Shown here: piece by piece, positions 1,369 to 15,337 of the stretch
How positions within the stretch are numbered: the first letter of the stretch is position 1
How the letters are laid out: every line of letters begins with the position of its first letter
IMG/VR virus record: IMGVR_UViG_2648501149_000017
DNA length: 15,337 nt
From: a virus
Taxonomy: Duplodnaviria > Heunggongvirae > Uroviricota > Caudoviricetes
Direction: 5' to 3' (one strand)
Translations under genes and position numbers: made by a program
Notes under the pieces: generated by a model
Database searches by the model: none
Told to the model about the DNA's origin: nothing
Seen by the model: the letters and a program-made list of their open reading frames with translations, nothing else

Positions 1369-1444
1369 GCCGATATAGCTCAGTTGGTAGAGCAGCGCAT
1401 TCGTAATGCGAAGGTCGTAGGTTCGACTCCTATTATCGGCACCA
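1369..1444 (+). tRNA. thrW: tRNA-Thr (anticodon CGU)
   Basis: 76-nt sequence GCCGATATAGCTCAGTTGGTAGAGCAGCGCATTCGTAATGCGAAGGTCGTAGGTTCGACTCCTATTATCGGCACCA with cloverleaf arms, anticodon loop TTCGTAA and 3' CCA; sits downstream of proA as thrW does in E. coli. Confidence 0.93.
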
Positions 1445-1445: not shown

Positions 1446-1608
1446 CACCTAGTTTTCCCAAGTCAACCCACATCAACAAAATCATTTAAAAACATATATA
1501 TTACGTTATTTTCATACGTTTGAGGTCAACCCTTGTCTCTTGAAATCAACACGCGGTTGGGGGCACAATCAGGGGCATGTTCTGTTCGGTCTAGGAAATG
1601 TGCCCCCA

Positions 1609-2799
1609 ATGATGCTGAATGCCCGCAAGGTTGAAGCTGCGAAAGGAAAAGAGAAGAGCTACAAGCTGTTTGATGGAGGTGGCCTATACCTTCAGGTCGA
1701 ACCTAATGGCTCGCGTTACTGGCGTATGAAATACCGTTTTGCTGGTAAAGAGAAACGATTGTCCTTTGGTGTTTATCCAACAGTCACACTTGCTGATGCC
1801 AGACAAAAACGAGAAGACGCGAAGAAACTACTCGCAGCAGGTGAAGATCCCGGCGAAGTCAAAAAAGCCAAAAAGCAGGCTTTAAATGCAGCGATTGAGA
1901 CACTTAACCCATTCAGAGAAGTGGCGTTAGAGTGGCACAAAATGAAATCACCCAAATGGTCTGAGGGCTATGCTTCCGACATCATTGAGGCATTCGAGAA
2001 AGACATTTTCCCGCATATTGGGCACAGACCTATAGCTGATATTCAGCCCCTTGAACTGCTTGAAGTTCTGAGGTTGATAGAAGCTCGAGGCGCTATGGAG
2101 AAAGCGAAGAAAGTCCGTCAGCGATGCGGTGAAGTTTTTCGCTATGCCATCGTAACGGGTAGGGCAATCTACAATCCGGCACCGGATCTTGCCAGTGCGA
2201 TGCAAGGACATGAAGCAGTCCACTATCCATTCCTCAAAGCCAACGAACTACCGGAGTTCTTTAATGCCCTTAATTCTTATTCAGGAAGTCCAATTGTATT
2301 GTTGGGGGCGCATTTACTTATCCTGACAGGTCTACGAACTGGAGAACTACGAGCAGGTGAGTGGCGAGAGGTGGATTTTGATAATGCGGTGTGGGAGATC
2401 CCAAAAGAACGTATGAAAATGCGTAGGAGCCATATTGTCCCGTTGTCAAAACAAGCATTATCCCATCTCAAAAGTTTGAAAGAACTAACTGGGAACTACC
2501 CGCTGATGTTCCCTGGACGCAACGATCCTAGCAAATTTATGAGTGAAGCAAGCATTAATCAGGTGTTTAAACGTATTGGATATGCAGGGCGTGTTACGGG
2601 GCATGGTTTCAGGCATACGATGAGTACAATCCTACATGAGAAAGGATTTAACAGCGCTTGGATTGAAACCCAGCTTGCTCATTCGGACAAAAACTCTATT
2701 CGTGGAATTTATAACCATGCCCAATATCTCGAAGGGAGAAGAGAAATGATGCAATGGTATGCTAATTATTTATCTGAGCTAATTGGTACTCATAAATGA
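1609..2799 (+). CDS. int: P4-type tyrosine integrase
   Basis: N-terminal arm-binding-type region (KEKSYKLFDGGGLYLQVEPNGSRYWRMKYRFAGKEKRLSFGVYP) and C-terminal catalytic region with HGFRHT and a YNHAQY tyrosine segment. The listed ORF starts at a TTG at 1540; first ATG is at 1609 (tandem ATG ATG), which I take as the start. Confidence 0.92.
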   Translation: MMLNARKVEAAKGKEKSYKLFDGGGLYLQVEPNGSRYWRMKYRFAGKEKRLSFGVYPTVTLADARQKREDAKKLLAAGEDPGEVKKAKKQALNAAIETLNPFREVALEWHKMKSPKWSEGYASDIIEAFEKDIFPHIGHRPIADIQPLELLEVLRLIEARGAMEKAKKVRQRCGEVFRYAIVTGRAIYNPAPDLASAMQGHEAVHYPFLKANELPEFFNALNSYSGSPIVLLGAHLLILTGLRTGELRAGEWREVDFDNAVWEIPKERMKMRRSHIVPLSKQALSHLKSLKELTGNYPLMFPGRNDPSKFMSEASINQVFKRIGYAGRVTGHGFRHTMSTILHEKGFNSAWIETQLAHSDKNSIRGIYNHAQYLEGRREMMQWYANYLSELIGTHK

Positions 2800-3620
2800 A
2801 TATTTTAAAAATTAATAATACTGATTCTCTGCTCAGAGATTACTACCAGTTGGATGAAGCTTCAGAAAAAATTGGTTGTAGTGAAAAGGATATACTCTGG
2901 TTTGCCAGAGAACGAGATGTAGAGCTATGCATGGAATTCCATGATGATGAGTATGATGTTTCATGTGGTTTGAAGATTGATGGTCAAATGGATGAGTTCT
3001 TATCTAATCTGAAATATTTACCACGAGATAGAAATGGCAATATTATGTTGTCAGACTTAAGTTCTATAAGAATCCCTGATGAAGATAATTTAATTGATAA
3101 AAATGGTTTTATTCGATGTTTCATATCCGGTTTATGGGCTGTTGATTATGAATATAAAGATCTGTTAGTTAAGCATGAGGGGCAACCGGATTCTTGGCCT
3201 ATTCATTTTCTACTGGCGGGTACGCCTAATATAAATTGTAAGGTAATTCTTTATGTAAATTATGATGAAAAAGAAAATTATTATCTTTTTGAGGTTTTGT
3301 GGATTACAAAGGTACAGATTCAAAAATTCATTGATATAGTCTTATGCGAACAAAAGCGGATAAAAAACGCCAATAAATATAAATCACAATCTGAGGCGCA
3401 AAAACAAAAACATGCTGTTCCTCGAGCTGAAATACTCATGGCTATTATTTCGCTCTATCATCGTGATATGAGGCTAAGAAGAGAGAGTCCAGCAGCGATA
3501 GCTGATTATCTTTTTCAACATGCCAGTGAGTTCTGGCCTAAGACCGGAGAACCGCCTTTGAGCTATGATACTGTTGTTAGTTTGCTACGTAGTTGCATGA
3601 AAAACATTAAGTTTAACTAA
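2796..3620 (+). CDS. hypothetical protein (AT-rich, unknown function)
   Basis: 274-aa ORF whose ATG overlaps the integrase stop (ATGA), suggesting translational coupling; base composition is visibly more AT-rich than neighbouring core genes. No family recognised. Confidence 0.6.
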   Translation: MNILKINNTDSLLRDYYQLDEASEKIGCSEKDILWFARERDVELCMEFHDDEYDVSCGLKIDGQMDEFLSNLKYLPRDRNGNIMLSDLSSIRIPDEDNLIDKNGFIRCFISGLWAVDYEYKDLLVKHEGQPDSWPIHFLLAGTPNINCKVILYVNYDEKENYYLFEVLWITKVQIQKFIDIVLCEQKRIKNANKYKSQSEAQKQKHAVPRAEILMAIISLYHRDMRLRRESPAAIADYLFQHASEFWPKTGEPPLSYDTVVSLLRSCMKNIKFN

Positions 3621-3745
3621 ATATTAACAATTATTGTGGCTAATGATTTTGGATTTTTTTCATTAGTCACATTTTTCTCATTTATAACCTATGTTTTAAT
3701 TTTCCGTGTTGAAGCCAATAGACTTAGATAAACGGAGAATGATGA

Positions 3746-4036
3746 ATGTTATCTAAACATGATAATACTACTTTGCAACGACCTTCAATGGATTCTCTGA
3801 TCGATATGAAGTTTATTACTTCCGATTGTTTATTAAGTGATAAATGGATTTATCGATTGATTTCTCTGAATCGCTTTCCAAAACCTATAAAAATAGGTCG
3901 GATGTCACGATGGCGCGCTGCTGATTATTATAAGTGGCGAGATGGGTTTGAAGAAAACTCAGGTCAACATTTTGAGGGAATGAGAAATAAGGCAAGAGCA
4001 ATTAATAAAGGGAATAGATTATCACCTACTCCCTAA
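3746..4036 (+). CDS. alpA: AlpA-family (prophage CP4-57 regulatory protein-like) HTH transcriptional regulator / excision regulator
   Basis: Motif LLSDKWIYRLISLNRFPKPIKIGRMSRWRAADYYKW resembles the AlpA HTH signature (RFPKP.K.G ... W); RBS ACGGAG upstream. An internal ATG at 3788 is an alternative start. Confidence 0.78.
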   Translation: MLSKHDNTTLQRPSMDSLIDMKFITSDCLLSDKWIYRLISLNRFPKPIKIGRMSRWRAADYYKWRDGFEENSGQHFEGMRNKARAINKGNRLSPTP

Positions 4037-4068: not shown

Positions 4069-4242
4069 TTAGCCTTTAGGGTCAATCCCGCGTGATTGGA
4101 GTTCTTTGCGTAAAATTCTTTTAATCCAAGTTGCCAACGCGCTATCTCCATCTTTGCGCATTTCGTTTTCGAGTTGCAACCTAAAATCGTCGGTAAGACG
4201 CATTTGGAATGGTGGAGAACGTTTCTCTTGTGGTGTTGACAT
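4069..4242 (-). CDS. Arc/MetJ-type ribbon-helix-helix DNA-binding protein (57 aa); not in the ORF track
   Basis: Minus-strand translation: MSTPQEKRSPPFQMRLTDDFRLQLENEMRKDGDSALATWIKRILRKELQSRGIDPKG; pattern of an N-terminal beta-strand (FQMRLTDDF) followed by two helices is Arc-like. Start codon overlaps a palindromic repeat. Confidence 0.65.
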   Translation of the reverse strand: MSTPQEKRSPPFQMRLTDDFRLQLENEMRKDGDSALATWIKRILRKELQSRGIDPKG

Positions 4243-4282
4243 GGTAATTACCCTAGAATATGATGACTACATGGTAATTACC
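4243..4282. promoter_or_regulatory. Two copies of the 10-bp perfect palindrome GGTAATTACC (4243-4252 and 4273-4282), each preceded by CAT; candidate operator
   Basis: Seen directly: CATGGTAATTACC occurs twice 30 bp apart, at the start codon and in the upstream region of the Arc-like gene, inside the divergent region shared with the icd-like operon. Confidence 0.5.
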
Positions 4283-4310
4283 ATTGTAAGTATAGTTCGC
4301 TTGTAAAAGC

Positions 4311-5218: not shown

Positions 5219-5598
5219 ACCAGCCGCAGGTTTCCATTTTCCCGGCAGAAATGACCACCGCGCTTTACCGGCGGGCTATTGCTTCAGCATGGCGGCAGAA
5301 AATGCTGAACGAAACTGGCAGTGATCAGTATGGTCCGCACAGCCTGACGGTGGAGCGTATTGAAATGGCCATTGCGCTGCATATCGAGTGCGTACTGATT
5401 AACGAGTACGGCGAAGTGCAGGGCGCCGCTACCGCGCTGGCACTGCTGACTGACATGCTGGAGCCGTCACTGCTGACCGCGCCGCCGGTACTGACCGCGC
5501 GCGGCTGTGAAGTGATGGCGGAGATGTACCGCACGCTTCCGGCGGCCTTTGATGACTTCTGCAGTACCGGTGTGACGTTGTATGAGGGGGAAGTATGA
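5215..5598 (+). CDS. hypothetical protein
   Basis: 127-aa ORF with AGGAGG RBS; translationally coupled on both sides (ATGA overlaps). Confidence 0.6.
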   Translation: MNQPQVSIFPAEMTTALYRRAIASAWRQKMLNETGSDQYGPHSLTVERIEMAIALHIECVLINEYGEVQGAATALALLTDMLEPSLLTAPPVLTARGCEVMAEMYRTLPAAFDDFCSTGVTLYEGEV

Positions 5599-8267
5599 CA
5601 ATACGGACGGTTACGCAGATTTCAGCCGCCGCACGGGGGAAATGGCCTGTTATTCTGCAGATGCTGCGTATTGATGTACCTGAAAACGGCAGGCACGGTC
5701 CCTGCCCGAAATGTGGGGGCAAGGATCGTTTTCGCCTTGATGACCTTGACGGGCGCGGGACGTGGATCTGCAGCCAGTGTGGCAATGGTGACGGTCTGGA
5801 TCTGGTTAAGCTCGTAACCGGTTACAGCGTCAGAAAGGCTGCGCAGGAGGTGGCGCAGGTGCTTAATGTGCCGGATGTGCAGGAACTGCCTGTTAAGCCT
5901 GCCAGACAAAAAGCCCCTAAACGAGACATGGGTCTTACCGTGGCGGCGCTGATGAAAGAGAGCCACACGGGAGAAAGTGCCTATCTGACAGGAAAAGGGT
6001 TCGCCGGATACCCGGCCTCTCTGACCGGAAGCGTGCAGCATATCAGCGGTAAGGATTTTCCTGCCGGTTCCCTGCTGTTACCACTCACGACCAACACCGG
6101 AGCCGTGACCGGTGCACAGCTTATCGCCCCGACGGGTGAAAAAAGCATACTGCCCGGCAGCACGATGAAAGGCGCGTTTGTGTCGCTCAGCCCGTTACCG
6201 TCTGAACCACCGGTACAGGTGGTGATTACCGAAGGTTACGCTACGGCGCTGACGGTAAGCCAGCTCACTGCCGGATGCGTAGTGGCTGCCATATCTGCGG
6301 GCAACCTGCCCAATGTGGCGCAGTCGCTGCGGGCACGCTGGCCTGAGGTAAAAATTATCATCGCCGGTGATAACGATTTTCAGGACGGGGGGGAGAATCC
6401 CGGCAGAGCCTTTGCTGAACGGGCGGCAAAAGCTGTTGGCGGCTGGATGACGCTGCCACCAGGAGAGATTAAGGCTGACTGGAATGACTTTCATCGGGAG
6501 CACGGTATTACCCGTGCCCGTGAAGCCTTTCGCAACGGTCTGGTACTGTGCGGGGAAGGCCGCACGCAACTGCCGCACGGGTTCCGTCTTACCCAGGAAT
6601 ATCTCTGGTATGAAAAGCAGGTACAGCGCAACGGTGAGACGGAGATCCAGAACGTCAAAATATGCAGCCCGCTGCGCGTGACGGCAATTACCTGCGATGC
6701 CGATGGCGGTAACTTCGGACGACTGCTGGAATGGGAAGATACGTGGGGTGAGTGTCGCCGCTGGGCGATGCCAATGGAAATGCTGAGCGGCAGTGGTGAG
6801 GAACTGCGCCGGGTACTGCTGGTTAACGGGCTGTCTTATATCAGCACCACCGGTGAGGCACGCGCACGCCTGATGGAATATATCTCACTGTGTAAACCGG
6901 AACGCCGCGTGACCTGCGTCAGTCGTACTGGCTGGCATGGTCAGGTTTACGTCCTGCAGGATGAGGTCAGCGGTGAAGGTGCAGAGGGTGTCATTCTCCA
7001 GACCACTTCCGTGCAGGGGCGTGATTTCCGCGTGTCGGGCACAACAGAGGAATGGCGGGAGCATGTATCCCGCTACTGTACCGGCAACTCCCGCGTGGCA
7101 TTTGCTGTCAGCCTGGCCTTTGCTGCACCACTGTTACGGCTGGTTGGTATGGACGGCGGCGGCTACCACCTCAAAGGGGAATCGACAGACGGTAAGACCA
7201 CCACCATGAAAGCGGCAACCTCCGTCTGCGGCGGGCCTGACTACTGGCAGACATGGCGGGCCACCGGCAACGCGCTGGAGGGATGCGCCAGCCGCCGTAA
7301 CGATGCCGCCATGATGCTTGATGAGATCCGGGAAGTTGACGGACGCGAGGCAGGCAATATCGCCTACATGCTGGCAAACGGTCAGGGCAAGGGCCGTGCC
7401 GGTACGGACGGTGAGCTGCGTACCCGTAAGCAGTGGCGCCTGTTGTTCTTTTCAACTGGCGAGTTGTCTCTGACCGAACATGCGGCAAAGGCCGGTGAGC
7501 GTACTTTTGCCGGGATGGAAGTCAGGATGATCCAGATCCCCAGCGATTCCGGGAAGTTTGGCGTTTTTGAGGAGCTGCACGGCTTCGACAGCGGCAAGGC
7601 TCTGGCAGAGCATCTTGAATGGGCCACGTCCTGCTACTACGGTTCGCCGTTCCGGGAGTGGCTGAAAGCACTGACCGCTGATCTTAACGGACTAACGGCA
7701 CAGGCAAAATCGCTGATGAAGGAATATGCTGCCGCCCTGACTCCGAAAGATGCAGGCAATCAGGTGGGCCGGGCTGTGAACCGCTTTGCACTGGTGGCGA
7801 TGGCAGGTGAACTGGCAACCCGTCTGGGTATCACCGGCTGGCCTGAGGGTGAAGCACTGCGGGCAACCCGCGTCTGCCTGAACGCATGGCTGAAAGATCG
7901 CGGGCACACCGCCAATCAGGAAGATATCGCCGCACTGGAGCAGGTTCGCAGTTTCTTTACCGCGAATCAGTACAGCCGCTTTGCAGACTGGTATGACGAG
8001 CGCAACCGCCCCGGCAATATGGTGGGCTGGCGCAGGGTGGAGAAAGGCAGTACCGCGCAGGGCACGGAAGCTGTCACTACGTTCTATGTCATGCCGTCCG
8101 GCTGGAAAGAAATCTGCAGGGGATTTGACCCGCGCAAGGTGGCGCGTCTGTGCGCAGATCGTGGATACCTGCTGCCCTCCACTGATGGCAAACTCCAGAC
8201 AACCATTCGCCCGCCAGAGATGAATCCCCGCAGGCTCTATGTCTTCAACAGCGAGGTGCCGGGTTAA
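5595..8267 (+). CDS. P4 alpha-type bifunctional DNA primase / P-loop NTPase (helicase-like)
   Basis: N-terminal zinc ribbon (CPKCGG ... CSQCG), TOPRIM motifs (ITEGYATAL ... IAGDND), then a P-loop domain with Walker A-like GESTDGKTT and Walker B-like MMLDE. Confidence 0.92.
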   Translation: MTIRTVTQISAAARGKWPVILQMLRIDVPENGRHGPCPKCGGKDRFRLDDLDGRGTWICSQCGNGDGLDLVKLVTGYSVRKAAQEVAQVLNVPDVQELPVKPARQKAPKRDMGLTVAALMKESHTGESAYLTGKGFAGYPASLTGSVQHISGKDFPAGSLLLPLTTNTGAVTGAQLIAPTGEKSILPGSTMKGAFVSLSPLPSEPPVQVVITEGYATALTVSQLTAGCVVAAISAGNLPNVAQSLRARWPEVKIIIAGDNDFQDGGENPGRAFAERAAKAVGGWMTLPPGEIKADWNDFHREHGITRAREAFRNGLVLCGEGRTQLPHGFRLTQEYLWYEKQVQRNGETEIQNVKICSPLRVTAITCDADGGNFGRLLEWEDTWGECRRWAMPMEMLSGSGEELRRVLLVNGLSYISTTGEARARLMEYISLCKPERRVTCVSRTGWHGQVYVLQDEVSGEGAEGVILQTTSVQGRDFRVSGTTEEWREHVSRYCTGNSRVAFAVSLAFAAPLLRLVGMDGGGYHLKGESTDGKTTTMKAATSVCGGPDYWQTWRATGNALEGCASRRNDAAMMLDEIREVDGREAGNIAYMLANGQGKGRAGTDGELRTRKQWRLLFFSTGELSLTEHAAKAGERTFAGMEVRMIQIPSDSGKFGVFEELHGFDSGKALAEHLEWATSCYYGSPFREWLKALTADLNGLTAQAKSLMKEYAAALTPKDAGNQVGRAVNRFALVAMAGELATRLGITGWPEGEALRATRVCLNAWLKDRGHTANQEDIAALEQVRSFFTANQYSRFADWYDERNRPGNMVGWRRVEKGSTAQGTEAVTTFYVMPSGWKEICRGFDPRKVARLCADRGYLLPSTDGKLQTTIRPPEMNPRRLYVFNSEVPG

Positions 8268-10766: not shown

Positions 10767-11726
10767 ATGCTAACCAGGGCTGAAAATATAAGAAAAATCA
10801 CAAGCTATTTAGCTATTCTCTCAAGAGAGGTTGAGATTAGTGCCTCCCTCAATCTTTTGGATATCAACGTTCAAGCGGAATCTTTTTATAGAGATTTCTT
10901 AAACTTATGTTATGGATATAATTTAAGAAATACCAATAGTGAAGAGCAAAACTACCAAGCAATAGATCTTGCTGATGAAGATCGGAAGATTGCTATACAA
11001 GTAACTTCAACTTCTGACTTGGGAAAAATTAAGAATACAGTTGATGGATTTATAAAAAGTAAGCAATATGAAAAATATGATAGACTAATTGTACTGAATA
11101 TAACTGAAAAGAAAAAGCACAGATTGAAAGAGTATGGAATAGCCGGGTGCTATGTAATTAATATCAAAGATGATGTATGGGATTATAAGGATATAATTAG
11201 AAAGATAAACGATTTGAATGATTGTGATATATCAACAATATGCTCATTTTTGGAACGTAATATTAATACTAAAGCTGCTGATAAACCGCCGAAAGAAGTC
11301 ACAACTATGTTTGCGATGATTGAATTATTGAGTGATGATGCTCACCCATTGGCAGGAAATGGATTTATTGAAGAGCCTAATCCTGAAAATAAAATATATA
11401 AAAGATTTTCAGATTATTCAGAGCGGTTGATTGGCTTATATACTGGGTTAGCTCCATTATATAGTGGGATATTTAAGTCAATAAAAGAACAGAGCGATAT
11501 TGGTATCGTAAGGTACCAAAAGATGAGTTTGTATTTAGAGTCATTTAGTGATAAGGTCTTAAGAAGCCATGGTGGAGATCCTATCTTGGCGCTTAATTAT
11601 TTAAAAGAATATTTTTCTAAACAACTGAGCCAGAGAAATGTAGATTACGATGAAACAGCTATCAAATTTTTCTTAATTGAGAATTTAATTGCATGTAACG
11701 TCTTTCCTAATTCGGAGATTCTTTGA
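10767..11726 (+). CDS. cargo protein with SMEK-like N-terminal domain (putative effector of a three-component ABC-ATPase system)
   Basis: 319 aa, AT-rich; the N-terminal segment LNLLDINVQAESFYRDFLNLCYGYNLRNTN ... QAIDLADEDRKIAIQVTSTS resembles what I recall as the SMEK domain found in conflict systems. AGGGA RBS. Assignment is from memory, not a search. Confidence 0.55.
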   Translation: MLTRAENIRKITSYLAILSREVEISASLNLLDINVQAESFYRDFLNLCYGYNLRNTNSEEQNYQAIDLADEDRKIAIQVTSTSDLGKIKNTVDGFIKSKQYEKYDRLIVLNITEKKKHRLKEYGIAGCYVINIKDDVWDYKDIIRKINDLNDCDISTICSFLERNINTKAADKPPKEVTTMFAMIELLSDDAHPLAGNGFIEEPNPENKIYKRFSDYSERLIGLYTGLAPLYSGIFKSIKEQSDIGIVRYQKMSLYLESFSDKVLRSHGGDPILALNYLKEYFSKQLSQRNVDYDETAIKFFLIENLIACNVFPNSEIL

Positions 11727-11974
11727 TGTTAAGTTTTTTTTCGAAAGATGAGGATTTGACAAAATCCCCTCCTGTTGTAGGGGCTAAAATTCTTAATTTA
11801 TTTGACGAAACAAAAAAAGAAAAAATTAGTATTTTCGATTTAGCAAAAGAATTAAAGAAAAACAACTCTCTAGGAGTGCGTGCAATTTATTTTGGAATGG
11901 TCTTTCTTTATACTCTTGATCTTATCGATTTCGATGAGCCATATGTGATAAATAAAAATGTTAAGAATAAATAA
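11726..11974 (+). CDS. small middle-component protein (about 82 aa) of the three-gene cassette
   Basis: ATG at 11726 overlaps the upstream stop (TGATG); the listed ORF begins at a TTG at 11723. Its 3' end overlaps the ATPase gene by 17 nt. Size and position between effector and ATPase fit an ABC-three-component middle component or a Lamassu LmuC-like protein. Confidence 0.55.
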   Translation: MLSFFSKDEDLTKSPPVVGAKILNLFDETKKEKISIFDLAKELKKNNSLGVRAIYFGMVFLYTLDLIDFDEPYVINKNVKNK

Positions 11975-13673
11975 ACTATATAGCATACCAGAATCTTTTG
12001 AGCCAGTAAGCTTTGATAGTGGCATCAATATCATCTTAGGTGAAAAAGATGTTTCATCTAACAAAACTAATGGAGTGGGTAAAACTCTTTTAATAGAGTT
12101 TATTAATTTTTGTTTATTAAAAGAATTTAAGTCGAGTAGAGTTTCTAAAATTCCTCATTCTGATTTTTCGAAAGACATTTTGATATGCCTTGATTTTAAT
12201 ATTGATAATATTAACATTATATCCCAGCGTTCTATTGGGAAACATAATGAGCCAACACTTGTAATAAATGGAAAAACAATAGAGTTTAGTGGATTAGATG
12301 ATGCGTTATCTCATTTAAGCAATCTTATCTTTAAGAATAGTAAGGGTATACTTCATCCATCATTTAGAGCGATGCTGGGGCCTCTGATACGCGATGAACG
12401 ATCTGAATTTAAATCTATTGTTGAGTGCTTCGACACAAAATTACATATACCTGCTGACTATACTCCTCATCTTTATTTGTTAGGTATTGATATTGCTCCC
12501 TATAAAGAGGCAAAGATTTTACAACGAGAAATAGATGATTTATCAACTACAAAAAATAAAATAAAGAGAGATATTGAATTTCTGACGGGAAAAAAAATTA
12601 GTTCTGCAAAGGCAGAGGTTAATGATCTTAAATCAAAAGTTGAACATATCAGAAACGCTATGGATGCATTTGATAGCGATAGCAGTTATGAACTTATCAA
12701 AGATGAAGTAGAAGAATTAGAAAGTTCTTTAGAAGAGTTGCGGAATAAAAGAACAATACTTAAGTTAGAGCTTTCAAGAATAAATGCTCTCGTTGGTGAA
12801 GTATACATAAATGATGATGAAGTGGTTGAAATTTATAATAAATTTAAAGTTGGATTAGGTGATGCTATCAAAAAAGAACTTAATGATGTTATTTCATTTA
12901 AGAAAAAAATAGATCACTTCCAAAACACTTTGTTAAATACGCGAAAAGAAACATTACTTTCTGAATTGCGTAAGATATCAGATAAGCTATATACAGTAAA
13001 TAGACTTTATAAAGAAAAAGCTAGTGTTTTTGAGCAGGCGGGGGGGTTTAAAAGCCTGAAAATTTTAATAATGACTTATCAGAAAAAGTTAGAGGAGTAT
13101 TCACAGTTATCTTCATTGCTTAAAAAATTTGAAGATTTCGATTCTAAATGGAAAGTTAAGAAGTCAGAACGCTCTTCTATGATAATTTCGTTAGATCTTT
13201 CTATTATGGATAACGAAAAAACGATTGAATCTTTTGAGGAAACCATTTTATCAATCCATGAATATGTTTTTGGAAATAGAAAGTGTTCTTTCGAAATTAA
13301 GGCGACAGAGAAGAAAGAAACTATCTCAATGGATTTAAGAATTGATGATGACGGTAGTCATAGTAATGAGCGAGAAAAGGTTTTCTTTTATGATTTGGCT
13401 CTTTTACTTACAGAAGAAACGTTTCGACGTCACCCTGGATTATTAATTCATGATAATATTTTTGATGTGGATCAAGATACATTAATTAAAAGCTTGAATT
13501 ATTTGGCAGAGAAATCCAGTTGCTTAAATGATGCACAATATATTTTGACGTTAAATAGCGACAAAATTAGTGAAATTGATAAAAGAGATTTGAAACTAGA
13601 TATTAACTTCTATAAGCGAGCTTCGTTAACTAAAATAAATAGATTCCTGGGAAGGCATTATCAAGAAATATAA
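11958..13673 (+). CDS. ABC/SMC-like ATPase (Lamassu LmuB-like / ABC-three-component ATPase)
   Basis: 571 aa; N-terminal head with P-loop (INIILGEKDVSSNKTNGVGKTLLIEF), long charged probable coiled-coil middle (many E/K heptad-like stretches), C-terminal Walker B / D-loop-like LLIHDNIFDVDQD. Confidence 0.65.
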   Translation: MLRINKLYSIPESFEPVSFDSGINIILGEKDVSSNKTNGVGKTLLIEFINFCLLKEFKSSRVSKIPHSDFSKDILICLDFNIDNINIISQRSIGKHNEPTLVINGKTIEFSGLDDALSHLSNLIFKNSKGILHPSFRAMLGPLIRDERSEFKSIVECFDTKLHIPADYTPHLYLLGIDIAPYKEAKILQREIDDLSTTKNKIKRDIEFLTGKKISSAKAEVNDLKSKVEHIRNAMDAFDSDSSYELIKDEVEELESSLEELRNKRTILKLELSRINALVGEVYINDDEVVEIYNKFKVGLGDAIKKELNDVISFKKKIDHFQNTLLNTRKETLLSELRKISDKLYTVNRLYKEKASVFEQAGGFKSLKILIMTYQKKLEEYSQLSSLLKKFEDFDSKWKVKKSERSSMIISLDLSIMDNEKTIESFEETILSIHEYVFGNRKCSFEIKATEKKETISMDLRIDDDGSHSNEREKVFFYDLALLLTEETFRRHPGLLIHDNIFDVDQDTLIKSLNYLAEKSSCLNDAQYILTLNSDKISEIDKRDLKLDINFYKRASLTKINRFLGRHYQEI

Positions 13674-13847: not shown

Positions 13848-13866
13848 CTCCTATTATCGGCACCAT
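13848..13866 (+). repeat. attR core: second copy of the 19-bp repeat CTCCTATTATCGGCACCAT
   Basis: Exact repeat of the tRNA 3' end (1427-1445); only the tRNA 3' terminus is duplicated, not a full tRNA. Confidence 0.8.
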
Positions 13867-14019
13867 TCTAACGTCTCCCCAAGTCTACTCAAGTATTTAA
13901 AAACCTCTTATAATCAGTATATTAATGCCCCTTTTAGTCTTTTGACGTCTATTTAAGTACCCCAAACTCTACAAGCAATTGAGGGGATTTGCTGTTCAGT
14001 TTAGTGGAGATACCCCCAA

Positions 14020-14358
14020 GTGAAACTCAATGCCCGTCAAATAGACACTGCCAAGCCAAAAGAGAAGGCTTACAAGTTGGCTGATGGTGGTGGTCTGTAC
14101 CTCCTGGTAAAACCTGGTGGAGGAGAATATTGGCGTCTCAAGTATCGTGTAGCTGGTAAAGAGAAGCTGTTAGCACTAGGTGTGTATCCTGAGGTCACCT
14201 TAGCTGATGCTCCTGCAAAACTTGAAGAAGCTAAAAGAGGTATCTCTGGGGGAATCGATCTGATGGAAGTGAAGCGAGAGGAAAAGATTGCCCGGGAAAC
14301 GCAGTTAAACAACACCTTCAAAGATATTGCCCTTGAGTGGCACAGTAACAAATTATAA
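14020..14358 (+). pseudogene. Truncated P4-type integrase (N-terminal 112 aa only)
   Basis: Translation KLNARQIDTAKPKEKAYKLADGGGLYLLVKPGGGEYWRLKYRVAGKEKLLALGVYPEVTLADA aligns with the N-terminus of the intact integrase at 1609, then stops long before the catalytic domain; preceded by an upstream region resembling that of the intact int (CCCAAGTC, TTTAAAAAC). Confidence 0.8.
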
Positions 14359-14792
14359 TCACAATAATAGTGTATATAATTATACATTGTATGCTTGGTA
14401 ATCATATAATGATAAAAGCTTCCGATAATCAGTATGAGATTTGTCCTTAAACTCCTGGACATGCTTTTCTAAATCTTCCAATGGTATATGTCCATTTATA
14501 CAAATAAAATTCTAGTGATAAATACCTTCAGGTATGATTAGACAACATCTTTATTCGATGGGGGTTAATCTATATTTGATATCTTTCTTTTAAATAACAA
14601 CGCCATTAAAAACGCTTTGTTTAATGACGTTTTTTTATTGTTTCCTATATAAAGCCTAACCAGCATAAACATTGGTGGCTCTTATGCTCATTGTAATTAA
14701 ATGAGAGTGTGATTAATGTCTTTATATATTCTGGTAGTTATTCTCTCCAGACGAATACATTGTAAGAAGATGACTGTTAGTATGTTTTAACG

Positions 14793-14826
14793 TCAATTAA
14801 CATCAATTAACATCAATTAACATTAA
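14793..14826. repeat. Tandem 10-bp repeat TCAATTAACA x3 (plus partial copy)
   Basis: Seen directly at the 3' end / stop codon of the minus-strand MarR-like gene. Confidence 0.5.
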
Positions 14827-15337
14827 GGTTTGATAATAATTTTTTGTTGGCGAGTTCAAATGTTTTCATTTCATCATCTGATAGCCCGCTCCAGATTTTC
14901 TTTAGCATTACATTTTGAGTGTTTATTAGTTTTTGAGCAAGTGTAACTCCGTCAGGGGTTAAGCAAATACTTTTGCTTCGACGATCGTTTTTATTATTAA
15001 TTCTTTTGGCAATATTCTTTTTTTCTAATTTGTCTATGATGTGTGTGATGTTTGTTTTGGAGAATTGTAACTCCTTGTAAATATCAGAAGGGGACTGGCA
15101 ATAATCATCAGACATATATAATGAAACTAACACCATAAATGTTGAAGTGTTTATTCTATACTCGCTCAATTCATTTTCTATAATACTCTGGATTTTGTCA
15201 TTTACTCTAATATATAAGTGTATTAACAGACTCTCCTGAGCCGGGTATGCCGGATTTTTGATTTTTTTGTAGTTTGTTATAGTTTTTAATAAATCTATAT
15301 TATTCATAATTCCACCACACGGCAAAAGAAAACTCAT
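14813..15337 (-). CDS. MarR/SlyA-family transcriptional regulator (PapX-like small regulator)
   Basis: About 165-174 aa with a central winged-helix-like region (SPSDIYKELQFSKTNITHIIDKLEKKNIAKRINNKNDRRSKSICLTPDG) typical of MarR-family proteins; AT-rich. The ORF reaches the window edge; the start is either the ATG at the very end (15337) or the internal ATG at 15307 (MNNIDLL), or lies outside the window. Confidence 0.75.
   Translation of the reverse strand: MSFLLPCGGIMNNIDLLKTITNYKKIKNPAYPAQESLLIHLYIRVNDKIQSIIENELSEYRINTSTFMVLVSLYMSDDYCQSPSDIYKELQFSKTNITHIIDKLEKKNIAKRINNKNDRRSKSICLTPDGVTLAQKLINTQNVMLKKIWSGLSDDEMKTFELANKKLLSNLNVN

Follow-up and report, generated by a model that had tools for sequence, protein, structure and literature searches.

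An open reading frame (ORF) of 274 residues, here designated X, occupies the slot between the integrase gene and the alpA gene of a P4-like satellite in the 15,337-nucleotide virus record IMGVR_UViG_2648501149_000017 (Caudoviricetes), the whole of which is referred to below as the window. Judged by comparison across loci, X is a hallmark of an int-X-alpA module, an old partner shuffled between satellites in the form of divergent alleles, rather than random cargo. We tentatively read its product as a binding or adaptor protein. The features of the module, in window coordinates, are:

1609-2799, plus strand: P4-type tyrosine integrase gene, int (Arm-DNA-bind_3 + Phage_int_M + Phage_integrase, by library match and RefSeq), first cistron of the operon
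2796-3620, plus strand: ORF274, X, 274 aa, second cistron after int
3635-3680, plus strand: intrinsic terminator of the int-X unit, with a 12-bp stem TGTGGCTAATGA / TCATTAGTCACA and then a T-run (-15 kcal/mol in the window, z -4.7)
3746-4036, plus strand: AlpA/Vis-like excisionase-regulator gene, the invariable neighbor 3' of X, with its own leader

The int start is ATG at 1609 in RefSeq; the mechanically called ORF begins with TTG at 1540.

A protein family with a fixed position

The RefSeq entry for the same ORF, WP_001023347.1, is a "hypothetical protein". Of 5426 complete E. coli genomes, 66 contain X as an intact frame, and 901 contigs encode the identical protein. The family comprises 18 clusters at 90% identity among 5.8 billion proteins and, by profile search, 44 representatives among 1.84 billion proteins, all from Gammaproteobacteria; a further profile search adds members from Aeromonas and Arsukibacterium, and every entry is labeled "hypothetical". 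The divergent family alignment (A2) contains no conserved stretch of 7-10 columns, and a tighter alignment (A3) served for the locus scan. In all of the more than 20 loci retrieved, which represent at least 12 divergent lineages, the gene order is a P4-type int (Arm-DNA-bind_3 type), then X, then an ORF of AlpA size or AlpA annotation, with the qualification that most of these contexts were retrieved by searching with X itself and are biased toward X-containing modules. The order holds at 54-94% X identity in Pantoea, Erwinia, Citrobacter, Shigella and E. coli, at 26-30% in enterobacterial members, at ~20%, and in Aeromonas and Arsukibacterium. Attachment sites of the elements concerned are tRNA-Thr (CGT or TGT), tRNA-Sec, tRNA-Arg and smpB-adjacent sites; the replication modules beside int-X-alpA feature a DUF927 primase, a D5_N/DUF5906 helicase, or DnaB; and some elements carry Psu/Sid/Delta, others a P2-type capsid gene. 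X was never seen away from int and alpA in the loci examined, and a tblastn search of phage and plasmid collections with X returned no match.

Relative to the homologous loci in Pantoea, Erwinia and Citrobacter, X is 56-60% identical, Int 63-83%, AlpA 69-78% and the primase 86-91%. The cargo that follows Delta in the window has no counterpart in those loci, where unrelated systems are found in every case. X therefore co-diverges with the backbone while the post-Delta cargo is replaced, which marks it as backbone-linked and not as hotspot cargo. In the related thrW islands, where a reading made earlier from the sequence of the window alone had advised looking for a broken frame or a match to some housekeeping family, X is conserved as an intact frame and has no housekeeping-family match.

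That sequence-only reading was right about composition. The GC content of X is 0.343 (0.28 at third codon positions), compared with 0.455 for int, 0.59 for the primase, ~0.55 for the host gene proA, and 0.28-0.32 for the post-Delta cargo. Among int, X, alpA and primase, X has the lowest GC content in each of the 14 loci measured, even where int is at 57-63% GC or the host at ~60%, and AT-richness is therefore a trait of the X family.

Two contexts among those retrieved deserve separate mention. In Pantoea agglomerans (loci L007-L009), the DUF5375-primase block is gone, int-X-alpA-arc-icd is intact and Sid-like/Delta are kept, so that X is retained in a replication-defective remnant. Contig NZ_JBQPOM010000063.1 (L015), labeled Vagococcus sp., has an enterobacterial proA-thrW context (proA 86% identical to that of E. 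coli) together with a P4-like satellite, and is probably a contaminant or a mislabeled assembly.

Exchange of old alleles between near-identical satellites

About 84 complete E. coli genomes have the thrW integrase; ~66 of them carry the window allele of X, ~11 an allele of 262 aa, and a single one an allele of 265 aa. At the nucleotide level, homology to other thrW islands invariably stops 20-40 bp short of the int stop codon. The exchanged cassette, as delimited by sequence comparison, spans the last ~10 codons of int to the terminator. Two E. coli thrW satellites, L024 and L025, share 97% protein identity for Int, 100% for AlpA, 98% for the next ORF, 98% for the capsid protein, 92% for the primase, and 58% for X. 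Between the window and these two, identity is 96-97% for Int, 83% for the AlpA core, and only 24-31% for X. The synonymous divergence (dS) between L024 and L025 is 0.07-0.31 in the flanks, whereas X is saturated, with a proportion of synonymous differences (pS) of 0.77; this contrast indicates that old X alleles moved between near-identical satellites by recombination, rather than evolving fast in place. X is the most polymorphic gene of otherwise near-identical satellites. Purifying selection acts on all modules of the protein, with ratios of nonsynonymous to synonymous divergence (dN/dS) of 0.01-0.22; the values for X itself are 0.05-0.22, about 0.1, dS being saturated for distant pairs, and a ratio near 0.1 marks X as a real, selected gene.

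A second satellite type with the thrW int and an X allele (L024 11477-13376; L025; L021 9636-11596; L013/L015) has a P2-family major capsid gene and a preceding ORF of ~290 aa between alpA and icd; no Psu or Sid match was found in this capsid-bearing type. The hotspot of L025 contains Kiwa (kwaAB).

Other occupants of the slot

Sampling by backbone is less biased than sampling by X. One replication and hijack backbone, 97-99% identical and present in 335 genomes, is found with three left-end modules:

left module 1: thrW int and X
left module 2: tRNA-Arg int and an X-family protein of 293 aa (E 3e-32)
left module 3: leuX int and a conserved AT-rich ORF of 212 aa

The leuX slot ORF (WP_001066505.1, GC 0.31) occurs at 4346-4984 in L026, in L030 and L031, and, disrupted by IS1, in L028. 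Its protein shows no relation to X when compared by hhalign with the X profile, and has no family match. In the sequences compared, the int-alpA slot is always filled, mostly but not always by the X family, and the shuffling of alleles together with the unrelated leuX ORF means that the slot behaves as an accessory or specificity position. The proposal of the sequence-only reading that X is a second acquired cargo gene is thus only partly upheld: the shuffled alleles and the leuX slot with its unrelated ORF speak for it, while AT-richness as a family trait, retention of the same slot down to ~20% identity, and co-divergence with the backbone speak against it.

Insertions of IS1 in or beside the slot gene were seen in three strains: E. 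coli VG12A2 (H1), NCTC11121 (H41), and the strain of L028. In PK8277 (L023), ISKpn26 lies directly after int and the remaining island has been lost.

A probable int-X operon

The ATG of X (2796-2798) overlaps the TGA of int (2797-2799) as ATGA, just as the sequence-only reading had described, and 12 of 14 loci have the X start within -8 to +13 nt of the int stop; overlap and short spacing support, at the level of sequence, the translational coupling to int that it had proposed. A recognizable Shine-Dalgarno sequence is missing before the X ATG in the window allele, which fits coupling by termination and reinitiation in that allele; GGAG-like motifs are found in most homologues. No promoter-like site was found upstream of X within int. 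A hairpin lies at the same place after the X stop codon in seven of eight loci, its stem sequence specific to the lineage (z -3.4 to -6.9 against shuffled controls), and a terminator conserved in this position suggests a two-gene int-X transcript, with alpA as a separate unit. The two genes probably form a bicistronic operon, X being translated through the overlap of stop and start codons or across a spacer of very few nucleotides. The inverted repeat after X (3635-3671) was also considered as an operator and rejected, since the stems vary among lineages while the pairing and the T-run are kept, as in a terminator.

Upstream of int lies a second repeat:

1557-1609, plus strand: int leader inverted repeat, a perfect 11-nt repeat, TTGGGGGCACA / TGTGCCCCCAA, the 3' arm of which abuts the int ATG (1609)

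This repeat is invariant in six loci with four different X alleles, though the surrounding leader varies; it therefore travels with int and not with X, and was rejected as an X operator. It may be an RNA hairpin that occludes the translation start of int, and hence of X, or a protein-binding site.

In the alpA leader (window 3700-3745), the Shine-Dalgarno sequence of alpA can form a stem with a segment lying upstream of it (TTTTCCGT / ACGGAGAA). The pairing is kept with other sequences elsewhere (CCTCTT / AGAGAGG and CCGCCGT / ACGGGGG; L024 11195-11240, L013 8865-8908), which suggests that alpA is under translational control through this stem. Farther downstream, a near-consensus promoter (TTGACA-17-TATGAT) at 4236-4284 is directed toward the icd-primase operon. 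Two copies of ACATGGTAATTACC, both with the palindrome GGTAATTACC inside, overlap this promoter. The copies are likely operators of a divergently encoded small regulator, and operators and promoter together are the probable main switch of the satellite:

4069-4242, minus strand: Arc/ribbon-helix-helix-like regulator of 57 aa, last gene of the swappable left module

Homology of the left module with the leuX and tRNA-Arg sister satellites breaks at ~4314.

Predicted architecture of X

The AlphaFold model of X has a mean predicted local distance difference test score (pLDDT) of 81.7 and divides the protein as follows:

2796-2981, plus strand: residues 1-62, N-terminal beta-alpha-alpha-beta-beta module, a predicted MerR/excisionase-like winged helix-turn-helix (wHTH)
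2982-3311, plus strand: residues 63-172, hypervariable acidic alpha/beta middle, mean pairwise identity 0.15, net negative in 97% of members
3312-3413, plus strand: residues 173-206, long helix, then a low-confidence or disordered K/Q-rich linker (pLDDT <50 at 190-205)
3414-3620, plus strand: residues 207-274 and stop codon, helical bundle, the best-conserved module, with motif (E)RHAxxRExVLxAA...FWP....PPLSxDxIxxLL

Conservation is highest in the C-terminal module (0.35) and lowest in the middle (0.15), and the C-terminal module reaches a pLDDT of 87.6 when modeled alone. The N-terminal module has the family motif YYxLxxAAxxLGCxxxDxxHxAxxGxI; its beta-alpha-alpha-beta-beta unit sits within a larger alpha/beta region of the model, and a beta-rich region comes next, where the MerR layout would have a coiled coil. 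Matches in fold to MerR/Xis-type winged helices are weak and confined to the modeled N-terminal module, and the middle region has no structural match. The net charge is negative in 30 of 31 diverse members. The only invariant or near-invariant residues of the family are A216, P254, D32, G112, R210, L214, W247 and L255, none of them catalytic, and on this sequence evidence X is non-enzymatic.

The absence of any recognizable motif, claimed by the sequence-only reading, was borne out by searches of Pfam, PHROGs, NCBIfam, PADLOC and PDB sequences, none of which gave a significant match to X. The 31 diverse members and the isolated N- and C-terminal segments, searched against Pfam, PHROGs, NCBIfam and PADLOC, gave nothing significant beyond phrog_7144, a family of unknown function that matches five of the 31. 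Searches of PDB sequences with X alone and with the family profile gave matches at chance level only. In the literature, the RefSeq accessions of X appear in no paper and no described family covers X; no gene between int and alpA is described in the P4-like satellite papers PMC8628076 and PMC13586616 or in PMC11773190, on the EcCIMP1 phage-inducible chromosomal island (PICI).

Possible functions of X

The reading we favor, still tentatively, assigns X to the module for lysogeny, integration and induction as an accessory factor of the lysogenic or establishment phase: a binding or adaptor protein that would work by contacting other proteins rather than as an enzyme or a classical operator binder. 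The conserved C-terminal module would dock onto a conserved partner, whether Int, AlpA or a host factor, and the variable acidic N-terminal and middle modules would recognize a variable ligand, for example a helper-phage or competitor protein. X would then determine which phage-encoded factors the int/alpA switch responds to or is protected from, a logic that would be like that of Stl from Staphylococcus aureus pathogenicity islands (SaPIs), on a different architecture.

Stl is a satellite repressor of ~250-280 aa in S. aureus, encoded beside int and expressed in lysogeny, with an N-terminal helix-turn-helix (HTH), a variable middle and a C-terminal helical module, and Stl proteins are extremely divergent between related SaPIs. 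X likewise is satellite-encoded, of similar size, next to int, laid out in three parts and strongly divergent, with some slot occupants lacking detectable homology; as second cistron of the int operon it would also be expected to be expressed in lysogeny. Unlike Stl, it has no sequence similarity or significant fold similarity to that protein, it lies downstream of int in the same operon and co-directional with alpA rather than divergent from the lytic operon, and its HTH-like module is acidic; the sequences upstream of alpA and int, compared for X alleles 58% identical, revealed no operator specific to an allele. By analogy, Stl would be the closest counterpart in logic, and MerR/Xis-type winged helices, for one modeled module only, the closest in fold.

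Several points weigh against an adaptor of this kind. Its partner and ligand are ones that we infer purely, and no homologue of known function was found. The same Int (96-97% identical) works beside X alleles only 24-58% identical, and the leuX sisters have their unrelated 212-aa ORF instead, so X cannot be an indispensable, co-adapted cofactor of Int. Insertion of IS1 in or beside X is tolerated in at least two strains. The Arc-like or YlcI-like regulator has likely operators of its own at the main early promoter, so that a further switch protein is not obviously needed. Finally, AT-richness, a dedicated terminator and allele shuffling would fit a moron-like defense or interference gene just as well.

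The last point leads to an alternative that we consider possible and nearly as likely, essentially the idea of the sequence-only reading: X may be a stand-alone, single-gene moron, active in phage interference, defense, anti-defense or inter-element competition, that uses the int promoter and has had its alleles shuffled by an arms race with phages or host defenses. Under the int promoter, X would be made in the lysogenic state and also as soon as the element enters a new cell. That X is the most AT-rich gene of its module in every locus measured and has its own terminator favors this alternative, as do the swapping of ancient alleles between near-identical satellites, the unrelated AT-rich ORF in the same slot of the leuX satellites, and the tolerated IS1 disruptions; an acidic modular protein is also compatible with inhibitor proteins. 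Counting on the same side, P4-like satellites carry defense genes and have less-populated defense hotspots besides the main one (PMC13586616). With the cargo of the psu-int (cos-proximal) defense and accessory hotspot of P4 (Rousset et al. 2022; PMC8628076; PMC13586616), X shares AT-richness, location on a satellite, recombination between near-identical elements, and tolerance of insertion sequences. It differs in position, occupying the int-alpA interval, across int from the hotspot; the true hotspot of the window, at ~10.3-13.8 kb, holds an ABC-three-component-like system. The occupant of the X slot is almost always of the same family, which keeps that slot across Gammaproteobacteria and satellite types, unlike hotspot cargo; no member turned up without int and alpA alongside or among phage or plasmid records. 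None of the 5027 models of PADLOC-DB v2 matches X, and no consistent match to them, or to candidate PDC families, was found among the 31 members, which gave isolated single-member matches to AriB, mad1 and SspF (E 5e-4 to 9e-3). No effector-type domain, transmembrane segment or catalytic motif was found in X. The DNA mimics Ocr and ArdA have far greater negative charge than X, whose -8 over 274 aa is not extreme, and X has no Pfam match to either.

Less likely is a role as a DNA-binding recombination or regulatory protein, in which X, through a putative N-terminal winged helix, would bind DNA as an architectural or directionality factor for Int at att, or as a Stl-like or LacI-like repressor of the alpA or int promoter. 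The N-terminal module may have the winged-helix topology of AlpA/Vis/Xis proteins (PF05930, PF12728), resembles them in its hydrophobic/Gly pattern, and is similarly linked to a P4-type integrase. X differs from them, however, in having two extra modules, being acidic and not basic, and lacking any match to their hidden Markov models or profiles, and a genuine AlpA is always encoded next downstream. At 274 aa in three modules, it is far larger than a typical recombination directionality factor (RDF), as the sequence-only reading had remarked: about three times the size of known RDFs, which are basic, single-domain proteins of ~55-130 aa, and an RDF of the AlpA/Vis type is encoded next door. 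Neither PF05930 nor PF12728 matched X, the 31 members or the isolated N-terminal segments; no HTH_17, AlpA or MerR match was found in Pfam, nor a MerR match in NCBIfam, for the X family; and hhalign of X or its N-terminal module against 12 neighboring AlpA proteins gave probabilities of 0.1-0.4%. The wHTH-like module is negatively charged in 81% of members (-9 in the window allele), with a near-invariant Asp in the presumed recognition helix. The alpA promoter is identical and the int leader nearly so in L024 and L025, whose N-terminal modules are only 35-60% identical per 20-column block. An acidic wHTH-like module, and the lack of an operator co-varying with the allele, weaken a role in operator binding or as an RDF and favor protein binding.

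A further proposal, which we put forward as quite unlikely, casts X as a subunit so far missing from Gram-negative P4-like and PICI-like satellites, the one that senses the helper and confers specificity: a polymorphic adaptor, made along with Int and not binding DNA, that would keep Int and/or AlpA inactive in the lysogen until a particular helper-phage protein binds the hypervariable middle and releases them. Were this so, an X allele swap would re-target a satellite to a different helper, and X would be a functional analogue of Stl on an unrelated fold. InrR, the "integrase regulator" beside intB13 of ICEclc, an element with an AlpA-type regulator, influences int expression and is not a recombinase; X resembles it by general description only, as a gene adjoining the integrase of an integrative element with an AlpA-type regulator, and InrR serves as a lead only. 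It is hardly credible that X was picked up recently from a foreign source, with AT-richness as the mark of this horizontal origin, or that it is a decaying ORF devoid of function: a GC content below that of its neighbors and the lack of annotation would agree with such a reading, but it is contradicted by a frame intact in all lineages with dN/dS of 0.05-0.14, synteny kept to ~20% identity, and the same GC deficit in every lineage. The remaining probability belongs to functions outside these readings.

The satellite and its surroundings

The element is a P4-like satellite integrated at thrW, with a cargo hotspot after Delta beside attR. An exact 16-nt repeat of the 3' end of the tRNA-Thr gene on both sides places X inside a 12.4-kb integrated satellite. 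The remaining features of the window are:

1-1254: host gene proA, at the start of the window
1369-1444, plus strand: tRNA-Thr(CGT) gene thrW (ARAGORN), the last 16 nt of which (1429-1444) are the attL core
between the Arc-like gene and the primase gene: icd-like gene, three small ORFs, and DUF5375 gene
5595-8267: TOPRIM/DUF927 primase gene
after the primase gene: Sid-like, Psu and Ogr/Delta genes
10767-13673: AT-rich cargo block after Delta, encoding SMEK-domain and DUF2326 proteins
13850-13865, plus strand: attR core, an exact 16-nt copy of the tRNA 3' end and right end of the satellite

The hotspot cargo (10767-13673) encodes a SMEK-domain protein of 319 aa, an ORF of 83 aa, and a protein of 571 aa (RefSeq: AAA / DUF2326), with PADLOC matches to PDC-M68B and Aga_REase-PNTD. 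L031 has a comparable trio that bears the annotation "ABC-three component system", and strain VE-T9 has the 571-aa gene broken into two coding sequences. Directly past attR (13866-15337), a second island starts with a leader like that after attL and a truncated P4-type integrase N-terminus at 14020-14358 (112 aa); shortly beyond, the RefSeq record of VE-T9 has a tyrosine integrase and then phage genes (yfdT, yfdR) on the minus strand. These features point to a tandem or remnant integration at thrW.

Implications for P4-like satellites

A large proportion of Enterobacterales genomes contain P4-like satellites. X defines an unannotated family, with no Pfam or DUF assignment, that is diagnostic of the int-X-alpA module across Gammaproteobacteria. 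As a single gene with natural allele swaps and natural IS knock-outs it is experimentally tractable, and the leuX 212-aa ORF is a second slot occupant of interest alongside it. Should X prove to act as a sensor or specificity factor, this would account for helper range, and its alleles could serve as markers in typing satellites; should it prove to be a defense or anti-defense gene, the slot between int and alpA would be a second, previously undescribed accessory position in P4-like satellites.

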